A stretch of 42,250 nt of DNA from Myxococcales bacterium. Its GTDB lineage: Bacteria > Myxococcota_A > Polyangia > Polyangiales > Polyangiaceae. The stretch is taken from NCBI GenBank assembly GCA_005800325.1, contig SYFR01000388.1, positions 1 to 42,250 of the forward strand. The letters are read 5' to 3'. Of this stretch, positions 9,517 to 14,637 are shown piece after piece; the stretch's first letter is position 1, and each line of letters starts with the position of its first letter. The notes beneath the pieces were generated by a model. The model saw nothing but the letters and a program-made list of their open reading frames with translations. It did no database searches and was not told where the DNA came from. A program made the translations under genes and the position numbers.

Positions 9517-10812
9517 TCAGGCTCGACCGTCACCGAGGACGAGGGCGCAGTTGTGCCCGCCGAAGCCGGCCGAGATCTTCAGCGCGTACCGAGCGCGAAG
9601 CGGTCGCGGCGCTCCCACGACGACGTCGATCGGACCGAGCTCGGGATCGAGCGTGTCGACGTTGATCGAGGGGTGCGCGACGCCGTCGCGGAGCGTGCAC
9701 ACTACAGTGATGGCCTCGACCGCGCCCGCGCCGCCGAGCAAGTGGCCGAGCATCGATTTCGTCGCCGACATCGGCACCGACGCGAGCCCGTCGCCGAAGA
9801 GCGCGCGCAGCGCCCGGATCTCCGCGGCGTCGCCCGCTACGGTCGAGGTCGCGTGCGGGTTCACGTAGCCGATGCGCTCGGGGCCGAGCCCGGCACGCTC
9901 GAGCGCCTGCCGGCACGCGAGCAGAATGCCGCGCCCGTCCTCGTGTGGCCGCGTGAGGTGCGCGCCGTCGCTGCTCATGCCGTAGCCGCACACCTCGGCG
10001 AGGATCTCGGCTCCGCGCGCCTCGGCGTGGTCCCGCGCCTCGAGCACGAGCGCCCCGGCGCCCTCGCCCATGACGAAGCCCTGCCGATCCGCGTCGAACG
10101 GACGGCTCGCCTTCGTGGGGTCGCCATCGCGTGAGCGTGCCAGCGCCCGCGCATTGCCGAACCCCGCGACGGTGTTGAGGCGCGTGGCGGCCTCGGCGCT
10201 GCCGACGATCATCAGATCCGCCAGGCCGGCTTCGATCATCAAGGCGCCGGTCGCGATGGCGTGCGTTCCGGTCGCGCAGGCGCTCGCGAGGTTGTAGCTC
10301 GGACCCATGAGCCCGTAGCGCATCGAGACGAGCGCCGTGCCGCTGTTGGGCATCACGCCCGGGATGAAGAACGGCGAGACGGCGCGCGGCCCGCGCTCGC
10401 GGCTCTTTTCGATCTGCTGCTCGAAGATGTCGACGGAGCCCTGCCCGGTCGACATGAGACAACCGAAGCGCGTGCGGTCGACCGGCGGCGCGAGCGCCGT
10501 AGCCGTGGCGCCGGGAACGTCCGCGCGGAAGAGCCCGCCGAACCCCGCCATGCTCATGGCCTCGGTCGCCGCCGCGAGCGTGAGCTGCGTGACGCGGCCG
10601 TAGATCTCGGTCTCTTTGCGCGAGAGGAGCCGCTCGCTCTCGAAGCCCTCGACCCTCGCTGCGACGTCGGAGCGAAGCGCGTCGGTCGGAAACTCGCGGA
10701 TGAACGACACGCCGCTCTCGCCGGCGAGCAGCCGTCGCCACGTGGTCGCGACGTCGAGCCCGAGCGGTGTGACCGCCCCCATGCCAGTGACGACGGCGGC
10801 CCGTCCCTTCAT
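9517..10812 (-). CDS. Beta-ketoacyl-ACP synthase II family (FabF/KasA-like elongating KS)
   Basis: Start MKGRAAVVTGMGAVTPLG. The active-site Cys lies in SACATGTHAI, and the His-His pair lies in NPHATST and KSMLGHLLGGAG. The ATG at 10812 overlaps the stop of the upstream desaturase gene (ATGA). The longer ORF to 11136 is an off-frame extension. Confidence 0.9.
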   Translation of the reverse strand: MKGRAAVVTGMGAVTPLGLDVATTWRRLLAGESGVSFIREFPTDALRSDVAARVEGFESERLLSRKETEIYGRVTQLTLAAATEAMSMAGFGGLFRADVPGATATALAPPVDRTRFGCLMSTGQGSVDIFEQQIEKSRERGPRAVSPFFIPGVMPNSGTALVSMRYGLMGPSYNLASACATGTHAIATGALMIEAGLADLMIVGSAEAATRLNTVAGFGNARALARSRDGDPTKASRPFDADRQGFVMGEGAGALVLEARDHAEARGAEILAEVCGYGMSSDGAHLTRPHEDGRGILLACRQALERAGLGPERIGYVNPHATSTVAGDAAEIRALRALFGDGLASVPMSATKSMLGHLLGGAGAVEAITVVCTLRDGVAHPSINVDTLDPELGPIDVVVGAPRPLRARYALKISAGFGGHNCALVLGDGRA

Positions 10813-11621
10813 CGCTGCGGACGCGCCTCGAGCGCAGCGCGCTGCGCGGAAAGCATCTCGTGGCGGCCGATGTTCAAGAACTTGAGCACCGGGAGGTAGA
10901 TCTTGCGAATGAAGAGATCGCGGTCGACGCTGCCCTCCGAGCGCATCTTGAGGATCCGCTCGTCGTAGTCGGGCACGAGGTCGACGCCGGGCATCTTGAA
11001 ATTGGCAAACACGAAGGCGAGGTCGGCGAGCGTGCCGGCGCGATCTTCCTCCAGCAGGGCCTCGGAGACGGCCTGATAGAAGCGCGTGTGCGCGATCTCG
11101 TCGCGAGCGATGTAGTCGTAGATCGAGAACAAGCACTCGTCGCCTTCGCGCTTCGCGTAGTCACGGTGCTTGCAGTAGATGACGAACGTCGCCTGCTCTT
11201 GAACGACTCCGTAGAGCGTCATCTGGCGCGCCGTCGTGAAGGGCGTCTCCCAGCGCTTCTCGGAGAGCGTGCGGTAGAGCTCGATCATCTGCGTGCGCGT
11301 CCGCTTGCCGGAGCGGACCAGGTACTCCCCGAGCGCCAGGGAGTGCTTGCTCTCTTCGTAGCCCCAGTTGGCCTGCCACCACGCGCGGCCGAACCAGTCG
11401 CGCACGACGTTGATGCCGCCCGCGACGTAGTCGGGCAGGTACATCTCGACCGAGGCGAACGTCTCCGCGCAGAGGGCGAGATCCTCGGGCGCGTCCGGGT
11501 TCACCTTGTCCCACGGAATGTCGTCGAAGACGCTCCAGCGCCGCTCGCGCTCGGCCTTCTCGAAAAACTCCATGTACGTGCGGTAGAGCCGCTCTTCGAG
11601 GTTCGTCGTCGGGTGGGCCAT
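10809..11621 (-). CDS. Soluble di-iron acyl-ACP desaturase family protein (DesA-like, ~270 aa)
   Basis: Two EXXH di-iron motifs (GYEESKHSLA and ARDEIAHTRF) plus candidate single Glu ligands (CAETFASVEMYLPDY, VVQEQATF). Size and layout resemble the soluble stearoyl-ACP desaturase / mycobacterial DesA family. Confidence 0.7.
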   Translation of the reverse strand: MAHPTTNLEERLYRTYMEFFEKAERERRWSVFDDIPWDKVNPDAPEDLALCAETFASVEMYLPDYVAGGINVVRDWFGRAWWQANWGYEESKHSLALGEYLVRSGKRTRTQMIELYRTLSEKRWETPFTTARQMTLYGVVQEQATFVIYCKHRDYAKREGDECLFSIYDYIARDEIAHTRFYQAVSEALLEEDRAGTLADLAFVFANFKMPGVDLVPDYDERILKMRSEGSVDRDLFIRKIYLPVLKFLNIGRHEMLSAQRAALEARPQR

Positions 11622-11728
11622 GGGTCAATCCTCGCTTCGGGGAGCTCGCGCGCCGCTCGTTCGTGCTCGCCGTTCGGCCGAGGCCGCTAGCGTCAGGCGA
11701 GTCGACGTTCAGCCGAGGGGGCTAGGCC

Positions 11729-12864: not shown

Positions 12865-12906
12865 GAATCGCTCCTCGGTTACGAACGTGTACGAGTGGGT
12901 AAGGGC

Positions 12907-14637
12907 TCAGACCTGCGCCGGGTTCGAGGCCCGCGCCGCGGGGACGCTCTGGGCCAACGGCCGCTCGGTAAGCAGCTCGAGCTCGCCGCGCTCGAGGCGC
13001 GCTCGCGTGTCGCGGCGGCGCACCTTGCCGCTCGAGGTCTTCGGCAGCGTGTTGCGTTTGATGAGCACGACCTCGGCGACCGTGAGCCCGAGCTCGCCGC
13101 GAACGCGCTGCTTCACGCCGCTCGCGATCTCGCGCAGGGCTTTTCCGCTCGCCTTCTGTGCCTCGGCGACGACGACGCACTCTTCGCTGCCGTCGGCGCC
13201 GACGCGCGCAAAAGCGACGCATTGATCGGGGCGAATGCCCTGCACTTCGCTCGCGACGCGCTCGACGTCCTGGGGGTAGTAGTTCTTGCCGTGGACGATG
13301 ATGAGGTCCTTCGCGCGCCCGCAGACGAAGAGCTCGCCGTCCGCGAGATAGCCGAGATCGCCCGTCCTGAGCCAGCCGCCGACGAAGCTCTCGCGCGTCG
13401 CGTCGGGCTGCTCGAAATACCCGCGCGTAATGCTCGGCCCGCGCGCCCAGATCTCACCGATGGCCCGCTCGCCGAGGGCGGTCCCGTCTTGCCCGCGAAT
13501 GGCAAGCTCGTGCCCACCGAACGGCCGGCCGCAGCCGACGAGCTCGAGGCCCTCTCCCTCACGCTGCGGCGCCGCATGTCCGCGCTCCATCGCGCGCGGG
13601 TCGATACACTCGACGCGCATGGGGACGTCGAGCCTCGCGAAGGTCACCGCGAGCGTCGCCTCGGCAAGGCCGTAACAAGGCAAGAGCGCCGCGGCGCAGA
13701 GGCCGGAGCGAGCGAAGCGCTCGGTGAAGCGCCGGAGCGTGTCCGCGTGGATCGGCTCGGCGCCGCACCCCATCGCCTTCAGGCACGACAGGTCCCACGC
13801 GCGCGACTGCTCTTCGCTCACGGCCCGCGTCGCGAGCGCGTAGGCGAAATTCGGCGCGAAGGTGATCGTGCCGCGATAGCGGTGAATCGCGTCGAGCCAG
13901 GACGAGGGCCGCCGGATGAAGTTCATCGTCGGCAGGAACATCACCTCGACCTGCGCGAAGATCGGGGCAACGACGAAGCCGATGAGCCCCATGTCGTGAT
14001 ACAGCGGCAGCCAGCTCACGCCGCGGTCGCGCGACGTTGCGCGCAGCCCGTCGAACATGATCGCGTGCGCGTTGTGGGCGAGGTTCGCGTGCGTGACCAT
14101 GACGCCCTTGGGCATGGTCGTGCTGCCGGACGTGAACTGGAAAAACGCGAGGTCGTCGAGCGCGACGTCGCACGGCGGCACCGGCCGAAGCTCTGGCTCG
14201 CCCTCGAGCTCGGCGTCGAGAATGAGCTTCACGTCGTTGCAGCCCGCGGCTAGGACGAGGTGTTGCTTGAGCATCGGCTCGAGCCCGGGCGTGGTCACGA
14301 GCGCCTTCGCCCCCGAGGCCCTCAAGATGTGGCGCACGGTCTCGCCATACGCATCCATCTTCGCGAGCGTGAGCGGCGGGTACATCGGCACCGGCACGAG
14401 GCCGCCGGTGAGCGCGCCCATGAACGCGAGCACGAACGCATCGGGCTCGGGCACGATGAGCGCCACCCGATCGCCCTTCCTCAGGCCGAGCTCGTGGAAG
14501 CGGTGCGCCCGCTGGCAGGCGAAGCGCCACAGGTCCGGGTACGAGATCCGTCGCTCGGAACCGTCGAGGCGCACGAAGGTGTGTGCGTGCTCGGTGTAGA
14601 CCGCGTTGTCTCGAAGAACTTCGACGAAAGATCGCAT
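12907..14637 (-). CDS. Fatty acyl-AMP ligase (FAAL, FadD32-like)
   Basis: FFQFTSGSTTMPKGVMVTHANL, WLPLYHDMGLIGF and GGLVPVPMYPP are FAAL-type adenylation signatures. The ATG at 14637 (MRSFVEVL) has GGGAGG about 5 nt upstream. Confidence 0.85.
   Translation of the reverse strand: MRSFVEVLRDNAVYTEHAHTFVRLDGSERRISYPDLWRFACQRAHRFHELGLRKGDRVALIVPEPDAFVLAFMGALTGGLVPVPMYPPLTLAKMDAYGETVRHILRASGAKALVTTPGLEPMLKQHLVLAAGCNDVKLILDAELEGEPELRPVPPCDVALDDLAFFQFTSGSTTMPKGVMVTHANLAHNAHAIMFDGLRATSRDRGVSWLPLYHDMGLIGFVVAPIFAQVEVMFLPTMNFIRRPSSWLDAIHRYRGTITFAPNFAYALATRAVSEEQSRAWDLSCLKAMGCGAEPIHADTLRRFTERFARSGLCAAALLPCYGLAEATLAVTFARLDVPMRVECIDPRAMERGHAAPQREGEGLELVGCGRPFGGHELAIRGQDGTALGERAIGEIWARGPSITRGYFEQPDATRESFVGGWLRTGDLGYLADGELFVCGRAKDLIIVHGKNYYPQDVERVASEVQGIRPDQCVAFARVGADGSEECVVVAEAQKASGKALREIASGVKQRVRGELGLTVAEVVLIKRNTLPKTSSGKVRRRDTRARLERGELELLTERPLAQSVPAARASNPAQV

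Follow-up and report, generated by a model that had tools for sequence, protein, structure and literature searches.

A stretch of 42,250 nucleotides from a Myxococcales bacterium (assembly GCA_005800325.1, contig SYFR01000388.1; hereafter the window) carries on its minus strand a five-gene operon encoding a fatty acyl-AMP ligase (FAAL), a methyltransferase of the cyclopropane and mycolic acid synthase family (CMAS), a stand-alone acyl carrier protein (ACP), a soluble di-iron protein of the acyl-ACP desaturase family (DES) and an elongating beta-ketoacyl-ACP synthase (KS). The cassette is of the FAAL/ACP-based fatty acid tailoring type, and is set apart by its soluble desaturase, its altered CMAS active site and its dedicated FabF-type KS. 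The enzyme types are familiar; their combination and the lipid product have not previously been described. We propose, at a probability of roughly 60%, that the operon runs a private line on its own carrier protein, in which a fatty acid is loaded, desaturated, given a methionine-derived carbon and extended.

The five genes form one operon

Genes were chosen by third-position GC content and translation, the G+C content of the window being 66-72%. The five genes (Table 1) lie consecutively at 9517-14637 on the minus strand, exactly where an earlier sequence-only reading of this DNA had placed them. Intergenic gaps of 42, 35 and 107 nt, as well as an ATGA overlap between the DES stop and the KS start, are read directly from the sequence, and gene calls on public contigs with the same DNA give five identical lengths. 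The clustering of the five genes is far beyond chance. Both their spacing and the conservation of their neighbourhood (see below) bear out the operon-like packing claimed earlier, and the five genes are one operon.

Each of the five proposed enzyme families is matched by a Pfam profile, and the EESKH and DEIAH motifs of DES and the Cys-His-His triad of the KS are present as described. Polyketide synthases (PKS), non-ribosomal peptide synthetases (NRPS), a Pks13-like condensase and a type II fatty acid synthase (FAS-II) reductase or dehydratase are all missing among the main open reading frames (ORFs) of the 42-kb window. The earlier statement that the condensase, reductase and dehydratase do not occur nearby holds accordingly, with no Pks13-type condensase or FAS-II partner of a mycolate system seen among these ORFs.

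DES belongs to the soluble acyl-ACP desaturase family

Profile hidden Markov model searches place the di-iron protein in PF03405 and the methyltransferase in PF02353, as anticipated, and not in unrelated families. The DES match to PF03405 scores 67.1 bits against a gathering cut-off of 22.7 and spans residues 80-249. Sequence matches in the PDB are plant acyl-ACP desaturases and DesA2 of M. tuberculosis, with DES being ~17-22% identical to solved or characterised desaturases. The di-iron ligands E59, E90, H93, E142, E175 and H178 are kept in 78-80 of 80 sequences, and T145, which aligns with T199 of the castor enzyme, is also conserved. An AlphaFold model calculated with 18 homologues as input has a predicted local distance difference test (pLDDT) score of 83.5, and the best 20 Foldseek matches to this model are all acyl-ACP desaturases, with template modelling (TM) scores of 0.63-0.78. 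According to this model DES has the acyl-ACP desaturase fold; cis-desaturation dependent on O2 and ferredoxin is a prediction. Assignment as a CylC-type halogenase, UndA, an aldehyde-deformylating oxygenase or the furan fatty acid enzymes UfaM/UfaD/UfaO was considered and rejected, as profile and fold searches put DES in PF03405.

DES has the fold, the six ligands and the castor T199 position in common with the plant plastid acyl-ACP desaturases and M. tuberculosis DesA2, but is shorter at the N-terminus (270 aa compared with ~340-360 aa) and belongs to a small bacterial clade usually found within the cassette. At E<=1e-30 this clade amounts to 68 clusters (50% identity) among 1.84 billion representatives. 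Database relatives number more than 2,000; the best 120 are 69-99% identical, and named sources among these 120 are Myxococcales, Deltaproteobacteria, Polyangiaceae metagenome-assembled genomes (MAGs), Byssovorax and Minicystis.

The methyltransferase has an altered active site

The CMAS protein matches PF02353 at 188.2 bits (cut-off 27) and contains the S-adenosylmethionine (SAM) binding motif VLDIGCGWG. The best PDB matches are UmaA (104 bits) and CmaA2 (98 bits). It falls below the cut-offs of both the mycolic acid methyltransferase model NF040660 (128 bits versus 390) and the cyclopropane fatty acid (CFA) synthase model NF008686 (136 bits versus 400). The alignment to the latter begins at position 117 of the 383-position profile; with its 285 aa, the protein lacks the lipid-binding N-terminal domain that CFA synthases carry.

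Active site residues were compared with those of five PDB enzymes, UmaA, CmaA2, MmaA2 and two CFA synthases. The CMAS protein retains C31, Y227 and C264. It has Q171 at the position of the bicarbonate-site His and D134 at that of the catalytic Glu, whereas all five PDB enzymes have His and Glu (the bicarbonate-binding residues of CmaA1 are H167 and E140). The canonical cyclopropane-forming active site, with its bicarbonate-binding His and Glu, is therefore not found in the CMAS protein. Gln occupies the bicarbonate site in 58/58 cassette orthologues and in 120/120 of the nearest listed homologues of the Nostoc copy. Substitution of the catalytic Glu by Asp is limited to the Polyangiaceae cassette, other Gln-type copies keeping Glu. 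The sequence-only reading had the enzyme produce a cyclopropane or a methyl branch; because Gln replaces the bicarbonate-site His throughout the clade, and Asp replaces the catalytic Glu in Polyangiaceae, neither product should be assumed.

Family assignments of FAAL, ACP and KS

The FAAL protein matches PF00501 at 229 bits, and FAAL families make up most of its strongest NCBIfam matches. The best of these, NF006624 ('fatty acyl-AMP ligase'), gives 495 bits, under its cut-off of 600, and the FadD32 equivalog model is missed by a wider margin (287 versus 975). The closest PDB structure is an E. coli FAAL (3pbk, 338 bits), and alignment to 3pbk residues 343-390 with gaps of only 1-2 residues reveals that the FAAL-specific insertion is present. 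Adenylation motifs are kept in 55 orthologues, and the ATG start in 9 aligned loci. Its nearest families and structures, together with the insertion, identify the protein as a FAAL, for which transfer of the acyl group to ACP and not to CoA is predicted.

The ACP scores 45 bits with PF00550, above the cut-off, but falls short of the AcpP-type models (25-47 bits against cut-offs of 66-106) and of AcpM (43 versus 146). Serine is found at position 39, and the DSL motif is kept in 44/45 orthologues. The cyanobacterial, acidobacterial and proteobacterial loci likewise have a small ACP gene between those for CMAS and DES, as does every phylum examined.

In the KS, the C179/H320/H357 triad is present in 42/42 orthologues. 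The protein passes the KAS II subfamily model NF005589 (439 versus a cut-off of 387), but misses both the fabF equivalog TIGR03150 (459 versus 493.75) and the KasA/KasB model NF005916 (286 versus 560). T. thermophilus FabF is the best PDB match (331 bits, compared with 245 bits for KasA), and alignment to PDB sequences shows a ~17-residue insertion near residues 89-107.

The core of the cassette is found in at least four phyla

An alignment of DES proteins was scanned against one genome per species, yielding 80 loci that were then searched with the window proteins (L-numbers such as L001 are the labels of the genomic loci compared). In 59 of these 80 loci, found through DES alone, a CMAS gene lies directly upstream of DES, and in 36 (all Polyangiaceae) a KS gene also lies directly downstream. 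A further 5 loci are incomplete, so that the CMAS neighbour could not be scored, and 16 contain DES alone; the latter are mostly from Dehalococcoidia, Elusimicrobia and Armatimonadota, with DES 40-44% identical. This survey bears out the co-occurrence of the families. One Myxococcota MAG (L083) pairs a Gln-type enzyme with a membrane desaturase and has no FAAL and no ACP; desaturase and Gln-type CMAS are therefore a recurring unit.

The order FAAL-CMAS-ACP-DES is seen in Polyangiaceae, including ~20 Sorangium genomes and Sorangium cellulosum So ce56, and is the same in a Haliangiales MAG, Nostoc, Aliterella, Pelatocladus, a Synechococcales MAG and several Acidobacteriota. Methylobacter and Burkholderiales MAGs differ in that their FAAL gene has shifted to a downstream position. 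The four-gene core is thus present in at least four phyla, and the view of the cassette as a myxobacterial oddity has to be given up. The Nostoc methyltransferase is 70-74% identical to acidobacterial copies, which points to exchange between phyla.

Sorangium is among the most intensively mined bacterial genera, yet the operon sits in every listed Sorangium genome, as well as in many Polyangiaceae MAGs. The orthologous operon of So ce56 is located at approximately NC_010162.1 3,407,764-3,412,950, with identities to the window proteins of 69% (DES), 74% (CMAS), 76% (ACP), 66% (KS) and 59% (FAAL). The system is directly testable in Sorangium, with So ce56 being genetically tractable and the proteins being small and soluble. 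In named isolates of other myxobacterial genera, the sole DES detected was a distant copy from Cystobacter fuscus.

Several loci contain divergent DES proteins. The Cystobacter copy (L048, strain Cbf 10, NZ_CP043491.1 9,447,177-9,467,962) is 48% identical to the window DES and lies divergent beside a FAAL gene; the neighbours include genes for an Aas-like ligase/carrier/acyltransferase and an alpha/beta-hydrolase-like protein but none for CMAS, making this a version of the module without the methyltransferase. Two Polyangiaceae MAGs (L058 and L064, at ~7000-12100) have an intact cassette in which FAAL, CMAS, ACP and KS are 61-76% identical to those of the window; their DES, at only 45% identity, appears to have been replaced by a distant relative from within its family. 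DES homologues 55-63% identical are found in L041 (labelled Enterobacteriaceae) and L047 (Planctomycetales), both with full flanks and with no FAAL, CMAS or ACP nearby. The G+C content of L041 is 70%, which is odd for its label, and the bin assignment may be wrong.

Different enzymes follow the core in different lineages

A KS directly after the core is found only in Polyangiaceae. In Acidobacteriota, a well-conserved alpha/beta-hydrolase follows instead. In three loci (L082, L063 and L067, of which L063 is labelled Heliobacteriaceae) a hydrolase is followed by a protein of the Aas kind that combines AMP-ligase, carrier and PlsC-type acyltransferase (A-PCP-PlsC). Nostoc PCC 7524 has a hydrolase, then a KS-AT-ACP PKS, then a KR-DH protein with a PlsC-type domain. 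In the other cyanobacteria, membrane desaturases follow the core in all three loci scanned, and a fatty acid hydroxylase, a reductase, the hydrolase, a hotdog thioesterase and an HlyD/ABC exporter are each present in at least one of these three. A condensing enzyme thus comes after the core in two lineages, as a FabF-like KS in the 36 Polyangiaceae loci and as a PKS in Nostoc PCC 7524. These neighbourhoods suggest that the four genes are a portable tailoring module, the product of which would be released, exported, extended or transferred to lipid depending on the host.

Links to glycerolipid acyltransferases recur, in the Aas-like proteins of the three loci above, in the partner of the Nostoc PKS, and in the sublineage of the window, where a PlsB-like acyltransferase gene is convergent with the cassette and directly followed by gpsA (Table 1). 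Orthologues of this acyltransferase (63-66% identical) lie 1-6.4 kb past the KS in L002, L003, L004, L009 and L015, and the GpsA region is near the cassette in L014 as well. This neighbourhood may be inherited synteny; its link to the cassette is weak and it is a hint at most. A minus-strand ORF at 4962-5525 was rejected as a gene and is considered an antisense artefact of the plus-strand gpsA. The other genes of the 42-kb window are housekeeping genes, including pilM/O/Q and those for Hsp33, spermidine synthase, a glycine dehydrogenase (GcvP) fragment and GpsA. No PKS or NRPS is found in the 10-kb flanks of the Sorangium cassette.

The operon is preceded by a sigma-54-like promoter and tandem palindromes

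The region upstream of FAAL, 277 nt in length, holds a promoter-like block and two palindromes (Table 1). The sequence TTGGCCCAAAATTCGCC at 14693-14709 has the -24 GG and -12 GC of a sigma-54 promoter with the 10-nt spacing, and the TTGGCCCAAAATTCGCCTA block is invariant in an alignment of 9 diverse upstream regions. The corresponding pattern TGG-N8-TYGC occurs 52-152 nt before FAAL in 36 Polyangiaceae-type loci, compared with 2.7/54 in shuffled sequences. It has no promoter-proximal match in the cyanobacterial and acidobacterial loci, where a single match was found at -346 in L057. A sigma-70 scan of 9200-15100 gave no promoter-like site, and terminator-like sites are at background level.

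The palindrome TGTCGAAAATTCGACA is matched at its two tandem sites alone in the window, with 0.12 matches expected by chance. All exact matches to the palindrome motif in 755 kb of Polyangiaceae loci (29/29) lie within 400 nt upstream of FAAL, and with up to 2 mismatches it is found in 34/54 loci versus 2.1 in shuffles. The sequence TGTCGAANNTTCGACA is a putative protein-binding sequence upstream of FAAL. We infer a sigma-54 promoter with tandem activator sites, for which dependence on RpoN and an activator is predicted; the five genes therefore appear to be a separately and conditionally expressed operon in Polyangiaceae. The promoter-like element and palindromes also provide a handle on the timing of lipid production.

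Table 1 Features of the cassette and its surroundings (positions in the window).
Feature	Position	Strand	Description
FAAL (fatty acyl-AMP ligase)	12907-14637	minus	576 aa; operon gene 1; PF00501
CMAS/CFAS-family SAM methyltransferase, short form	12007-12864	minus	285 aa; PF02353
ACP, stand-alone	11729-11971	minus	80 aa; PF00550; phosphopantetheine site Ser39 (GVDSLSM)
DES, soluble di-iron acyl-ACP desaturase family	10809-11621	minus	270 aa; PF03405
KS, FabF-type elongating beta-ketoacyl-ACP synthase	9517-10812	minus	431 aa; PF00109 + PF02801
Sigma-54-like -24/-12 element TTGGCCCAAAATTCGCCTA, GG-N10-GC	14691-14709	minus	54-72 nt upstream of FAAL ATG
Perfect 16-bp palindrome TGTCGAAAATTCGACA	14772-14787	both	putative activator (enhancer-binding protein) site
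Palindrome copy 2, 1 mismatch	14796-14811	both	direct repeat, spacing 24 bp
PlsB-like acyltransferase	3113-4861	plus	582 aa; PF01553, weak PlsB matches; convergent with cassette
GpsA glycerol-3-phosphate dehydrogenase	~4879-5802	plus	GpsA models 148 bits; directly after acyltransferase

The same region has a 68-nt direct repeat (14830-14897 and 14905-14972; 87% identical, 75 nt apart), in which the last ~58 nt and stop codon of the lipoprotein gene at 14915-16024 recur just downstream of that gene and before the palindromes. A similar reiterated 'CCGCCGG(A/C)CTGAGC' is seen in L001. In L058 and L064, the two loci with a divergent DES in an intact cassette, the palindrome lies just ~20-25 nt ahead of the FAAL start.

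Comparison with known systems

The closest characterised system is the Fsh module of the fischerazole cluster from Fischerella sp. PCC 9431, reported in July 2026. There, the FAAL FshA loads C12-C16 acids onto the ACP FshE, and the CFAS/CMAS-family enzyme FshF acts on ACP-tethered cis-8-16:1 to give a vinyl-branched acid, with the cyclopropane formed as well in vitro; the cluster further encodes a membrane desaturase, FshD (PMC13548996). Its authors place FshF among numerous uncharacterised homologues that come from several phyla (PMC13548996). Like Fsh, the cassette clusters a FAAL, a stand-alone ACP, a CMAS-family methyltransferase and a desaturase, followed by a ketosynthase-containing enzyme. 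The desaturases differ in kind, with that of Fsh a membrane FA_desaturase and that of the cassette a soluble di-iron protein. Furthermore, Fsh is part of a PKS/NRPS/halogenase cluster with a lipopeptide product, whereas the cassette is a free-standing unit amid housekeeping genes, with a FabF-type KS as its last gene. No Fischerella protein is among the best 120 homologues of the Nostoc cassette methyltransferase, and FshF was compared by its description.

In the sequence-only reading, CMAS chemistry at the level of the ACP would be unusual outside Actinobacteria; FshA, FshE and FshF in a cyanobacterium set a precedent (PMC13548996) that removes this argument and also supports the proposed mechanism in outline. 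If our proposal is true, carrier-bound CMAS chemistry would no longer be confined to the pathway of a single cyanobacterial lipopeptide, but would belong to a module shared by at least four phyla.

The sequence-only reading likened the cassette to the mycobacterial enzymes that build and decorate meromycolate. FadD32, AcpM, KasA/KasB, CmaA/MmaA/PcaA/UmaA and DesA1/DesA2 are indeed of the same five superfamilies, and the mycolic acid methyltransferases are of the short form seen in the cassette. The parallel goes no further than superfamily level, the scores being far under every mycobacterial equivalog cut-off. In contrast to mycobacteria, there is no Pks13 at the cassette, the KS is nearer FabF than KasA, and the bicarbonate-site His and the Glu are replaced. 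The mycobacterial meromycolate genes are moreover scattered, whereas those of the cassette form a single operon.

JamA, JamB and JamC of the jamaicamide pathway, and related FAAL-ACP-desaturase cassettes, follow the same logic, in which a free fatty acid is passed to a private ACP, desaturated and handed to a ketosynthase. JamB is however a membrane desaturase that forms a terminal alkene or alkyne on a C6 chain, and Jam is without a methyltransferase, its product entering a PKS/NRPS. In the Burkholderia afc cluster (AFC-BC11), a FAAL (AfcA) occurs together with AfcN and AfcD, which are homologues of acyl-ACP desaturases (PMC12186527). This cluster resembles the cassette in joining a FAAL with soluble acyl-ACP desaturase homologues in a Gram-negative organism, but has no CMAS-family enzyme and makes a lipopeptide. 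A full-text literature search found no description of a FAAL-CMAS-ACP-soluble-desaturase cassette, in agreement with the earlier impression that this is not a described pathway; the only pertinent papers concern Fsh and the afc cluster.

Proposed reaction sequence

In the proposed mechanism, FAAL would adenylate a free fatty acid and transfer it to Ser39 of the dedicated ACP, as suggested by its family, motifs and insertion. DES, with O2 and reduced ferredoxin, would then introduce a cis double bond into the ACP-bound chain, and the short CMAS methyltransferase would transfer the methyl carbon of SAM to the olefin, giving a cyclopropane, a methylene or methyl-branched olefin, or a rearranged vinyl branch. 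Finally, the KS would condense the tailored chain with malonyl-ACP, from where it would pass to the general FAS-II and acyltransferase machinery. The end product would be found in cellular, probably envelope, glycerolipids and not in a polyketide or peptide. Other phyla would finish the core differently, by means of an alpha/beta-hydrolase, a hotdog thioesterase and exporter, a PKS, or an Aas-like ligase-carrier-acyltransferase. The four-step logic of the sequence-only reading stands in outline, with support from the recurring desaturase-CMAS pairs, the ACP between CMAS and DES, and the KS or PKS after the core, while its cyclopropane or methyl-branch outcome should not be taken for granted. 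The membrane desaturase FshD encoded in the Fsh cluster also fits a desaturase that makes the olefin. With its soluble desaturase and altered active site, the module may bring about novel chemistry on alkyl chains, of use for functionalising remote carbons by biocatalysis.

A number of points weigh against this proposal. Its steps all draw on families, motifs, folds, linkage and the Fsh analogues, and that desaturation precedes methyl transfer is our own inference. Both FAAL and KS are under the strictest NCBIfam cut-offs, and the low identity of DES to known desaturases (~20%) may leave room for another di-iron oxidation. The KS gene lies apart or convergent in L014, L037, L044 and L071, and in Sorangium neither the acyltransferase nor GpsA is near the cassette. 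The sigma-54 call is a consensus match with TCGC, not TTGC, at -12. Lastly, no literature report was found of cyclopropane, mid-chain-branched or vinyl fatty acids in Sorangium or Byssovorax.

A more far-reaching scheme is put forward tentatively, being in our view possible rather than probable. It holds the Gln-type short CMAS enzymes to be a distinct clade which, with a dedicated soluble desaturase, would carry out non-cyclopropanating one-carbon chemistry on ACP-bound fatty acids, for example by forming a methylene, vinyl or allylic-methyl branch. The portable FAAL-CMAS-ACP-DES module would have spread between Polyangiaceae, Acidobacteriota, Cyanobacteria and Proteobacteria, giving an unrecognised class of mid-chain-modified acyl chains. 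Polyangiaceae would elongate these with the private FabF-like KS into envelope glycerolipids, and would do so only once the operon has been turned on by a sigma-54 activator.

7-Methylheptadecane is widespread in Nostocales. The idea that its methyl branch derives from the cyanobacterial copies of the module was dropped, as only five cyanobacterial genomes are among the 80 loci.

Alternative explanations

The order of the tailoring steps might be reversed, which we regard as unlikely. FAAL would load an unsaturated acid on which CMAS acts first, DES would then desaturate at or near the new group, and the KS would extend products such as a cyclopropene or a conjugated or allylic system. Such an order agrees with the gene order FAAL-CMAS-ACP-DES, although genes need not be arranged in the sequence of the reactions that they encode. 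Plant sterculate probably forms by desaturation of a cyclopropane fatty acid, FshA took cis-9-16:1 directly with FshF then acting on it, and the extra membrane desaturases of the cyanobacterial versions could supply or add double bonds. Set against this, the lone DES homologues in Dehalococcoidia, Elusimicrobia and Armatimonadota point to descent from an ordinary desaturase with saturated substrates, and the recurrent pairing of a desaturase with the Gln-type CMAS is most simply explained by, and fits, a desaturase making the olefin for the methyltransferase.

The proposal of a membrane lipid product also has to be weighed against a role of the cassette as the source of a modified acyl starter for an unlinked PKS, NRPS or other secondary pathway, as in fischerazole or jamaicamide. 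Lipopeptide and polyketide clusters usually start with a module of FAAL, ACP and tailoring enzymes, the core has a PKS after it in Nostoc PCC 7524, and cyanobacterial versions include exporters. We nonetheless hold this to be slightly less probable still, given that PKS and NRPS genes were found neither among the main ORFs of the window, with its housekeeping genes, nor in the 10-kb Sorangium flanks, that the KS is FabF-type and not PKS-type, and that the presence of the cassette in every listed Sorangium genome and many Polyangiaceae MAGs, at 59-76% identity, is more like that of a core trait than of a cluster peculiar to single strains.

It is improbable that the di-iron protein is some other O2-dependent acyl-ACP oxidase, such as a hydroxylase or epoxidase, and that the methyltransferase targets another functional group. 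The fold of acyl-ACP desaturases can switch outcome with few substitutions, DES is only distantly related to the solved enzymes and its Pfam match covers part of the model only, and AfcN and AfcD, the Burkholderia homologues, have no settled role. However, the six ligands and the castor T199 equivalent are conserved, the best 20 structural matches are all desaturases, and CMAS-family enzymes need an olefin, which a desaturase would provide.

That these are plain housekeeping genes (the main desaturase, AcpP, FabF and a CFA synthase) adjacent by chance is very improbable: the KS does pass the 'KAS II' cut-off of NF005589 and the window context is housekeeping, but the ACP is far under the AcpP cut-offs (39-47 bits versus 66-106), the KS is under that of the fabF equivalog, de novo synthesis needs no FAAL, the CMAS protein has no membrane-binding N-domain and as a CFA synthase reaches 136 bits where 400 are required, the DES family is small, and the conserved regulatory sites are private to the cassette.

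Neighbouring genes in the window

Directly upstream of the cassette, minus-strand genes at 14915-18249 encode three proteins, one lipoprotein-like (369 aa), one outer-membrane-like and of the TIGR04551 family (544 aa), and a hotdog thioesterase resembling YciA (168 aa). The first two are syntenic only in the closest MAGs (L001-L005) and the thioesterase in L001, L003 and L004; all are absent in Sorangium. They were rejected as members of the system in view of this narrow synteny and of the conserved promoter between them and FAAL. The thioesterase could act on acyl thioesters of the cassette.

Further upstream, a minus-strand gene at 19613-20623 encodes a 336-aa protein without a Pfam or NCBIfam match, which was not found in the related loci; its LHPLTDAHG motif recalls the HxxxD of CoA-dependent acyltransferases and condensation domains. 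A type IV pilus operon at 20669-26165, also on the minus strand (PilM, 24969-26165; PilO, 23678-24340; PilQ secretin, 20669-23110), looks unrelated to the cassette.

Downstream, a minus-strand gene at 6648-9383 begins 133 nt past the KS stop and encodes a 911-aa protein with an internal tandem duplication (two family-2 glycosyltransferase domains with TPR repeats). It is missing from this position in related loci, where gpsA follows the KS, and it looks like an insertion.

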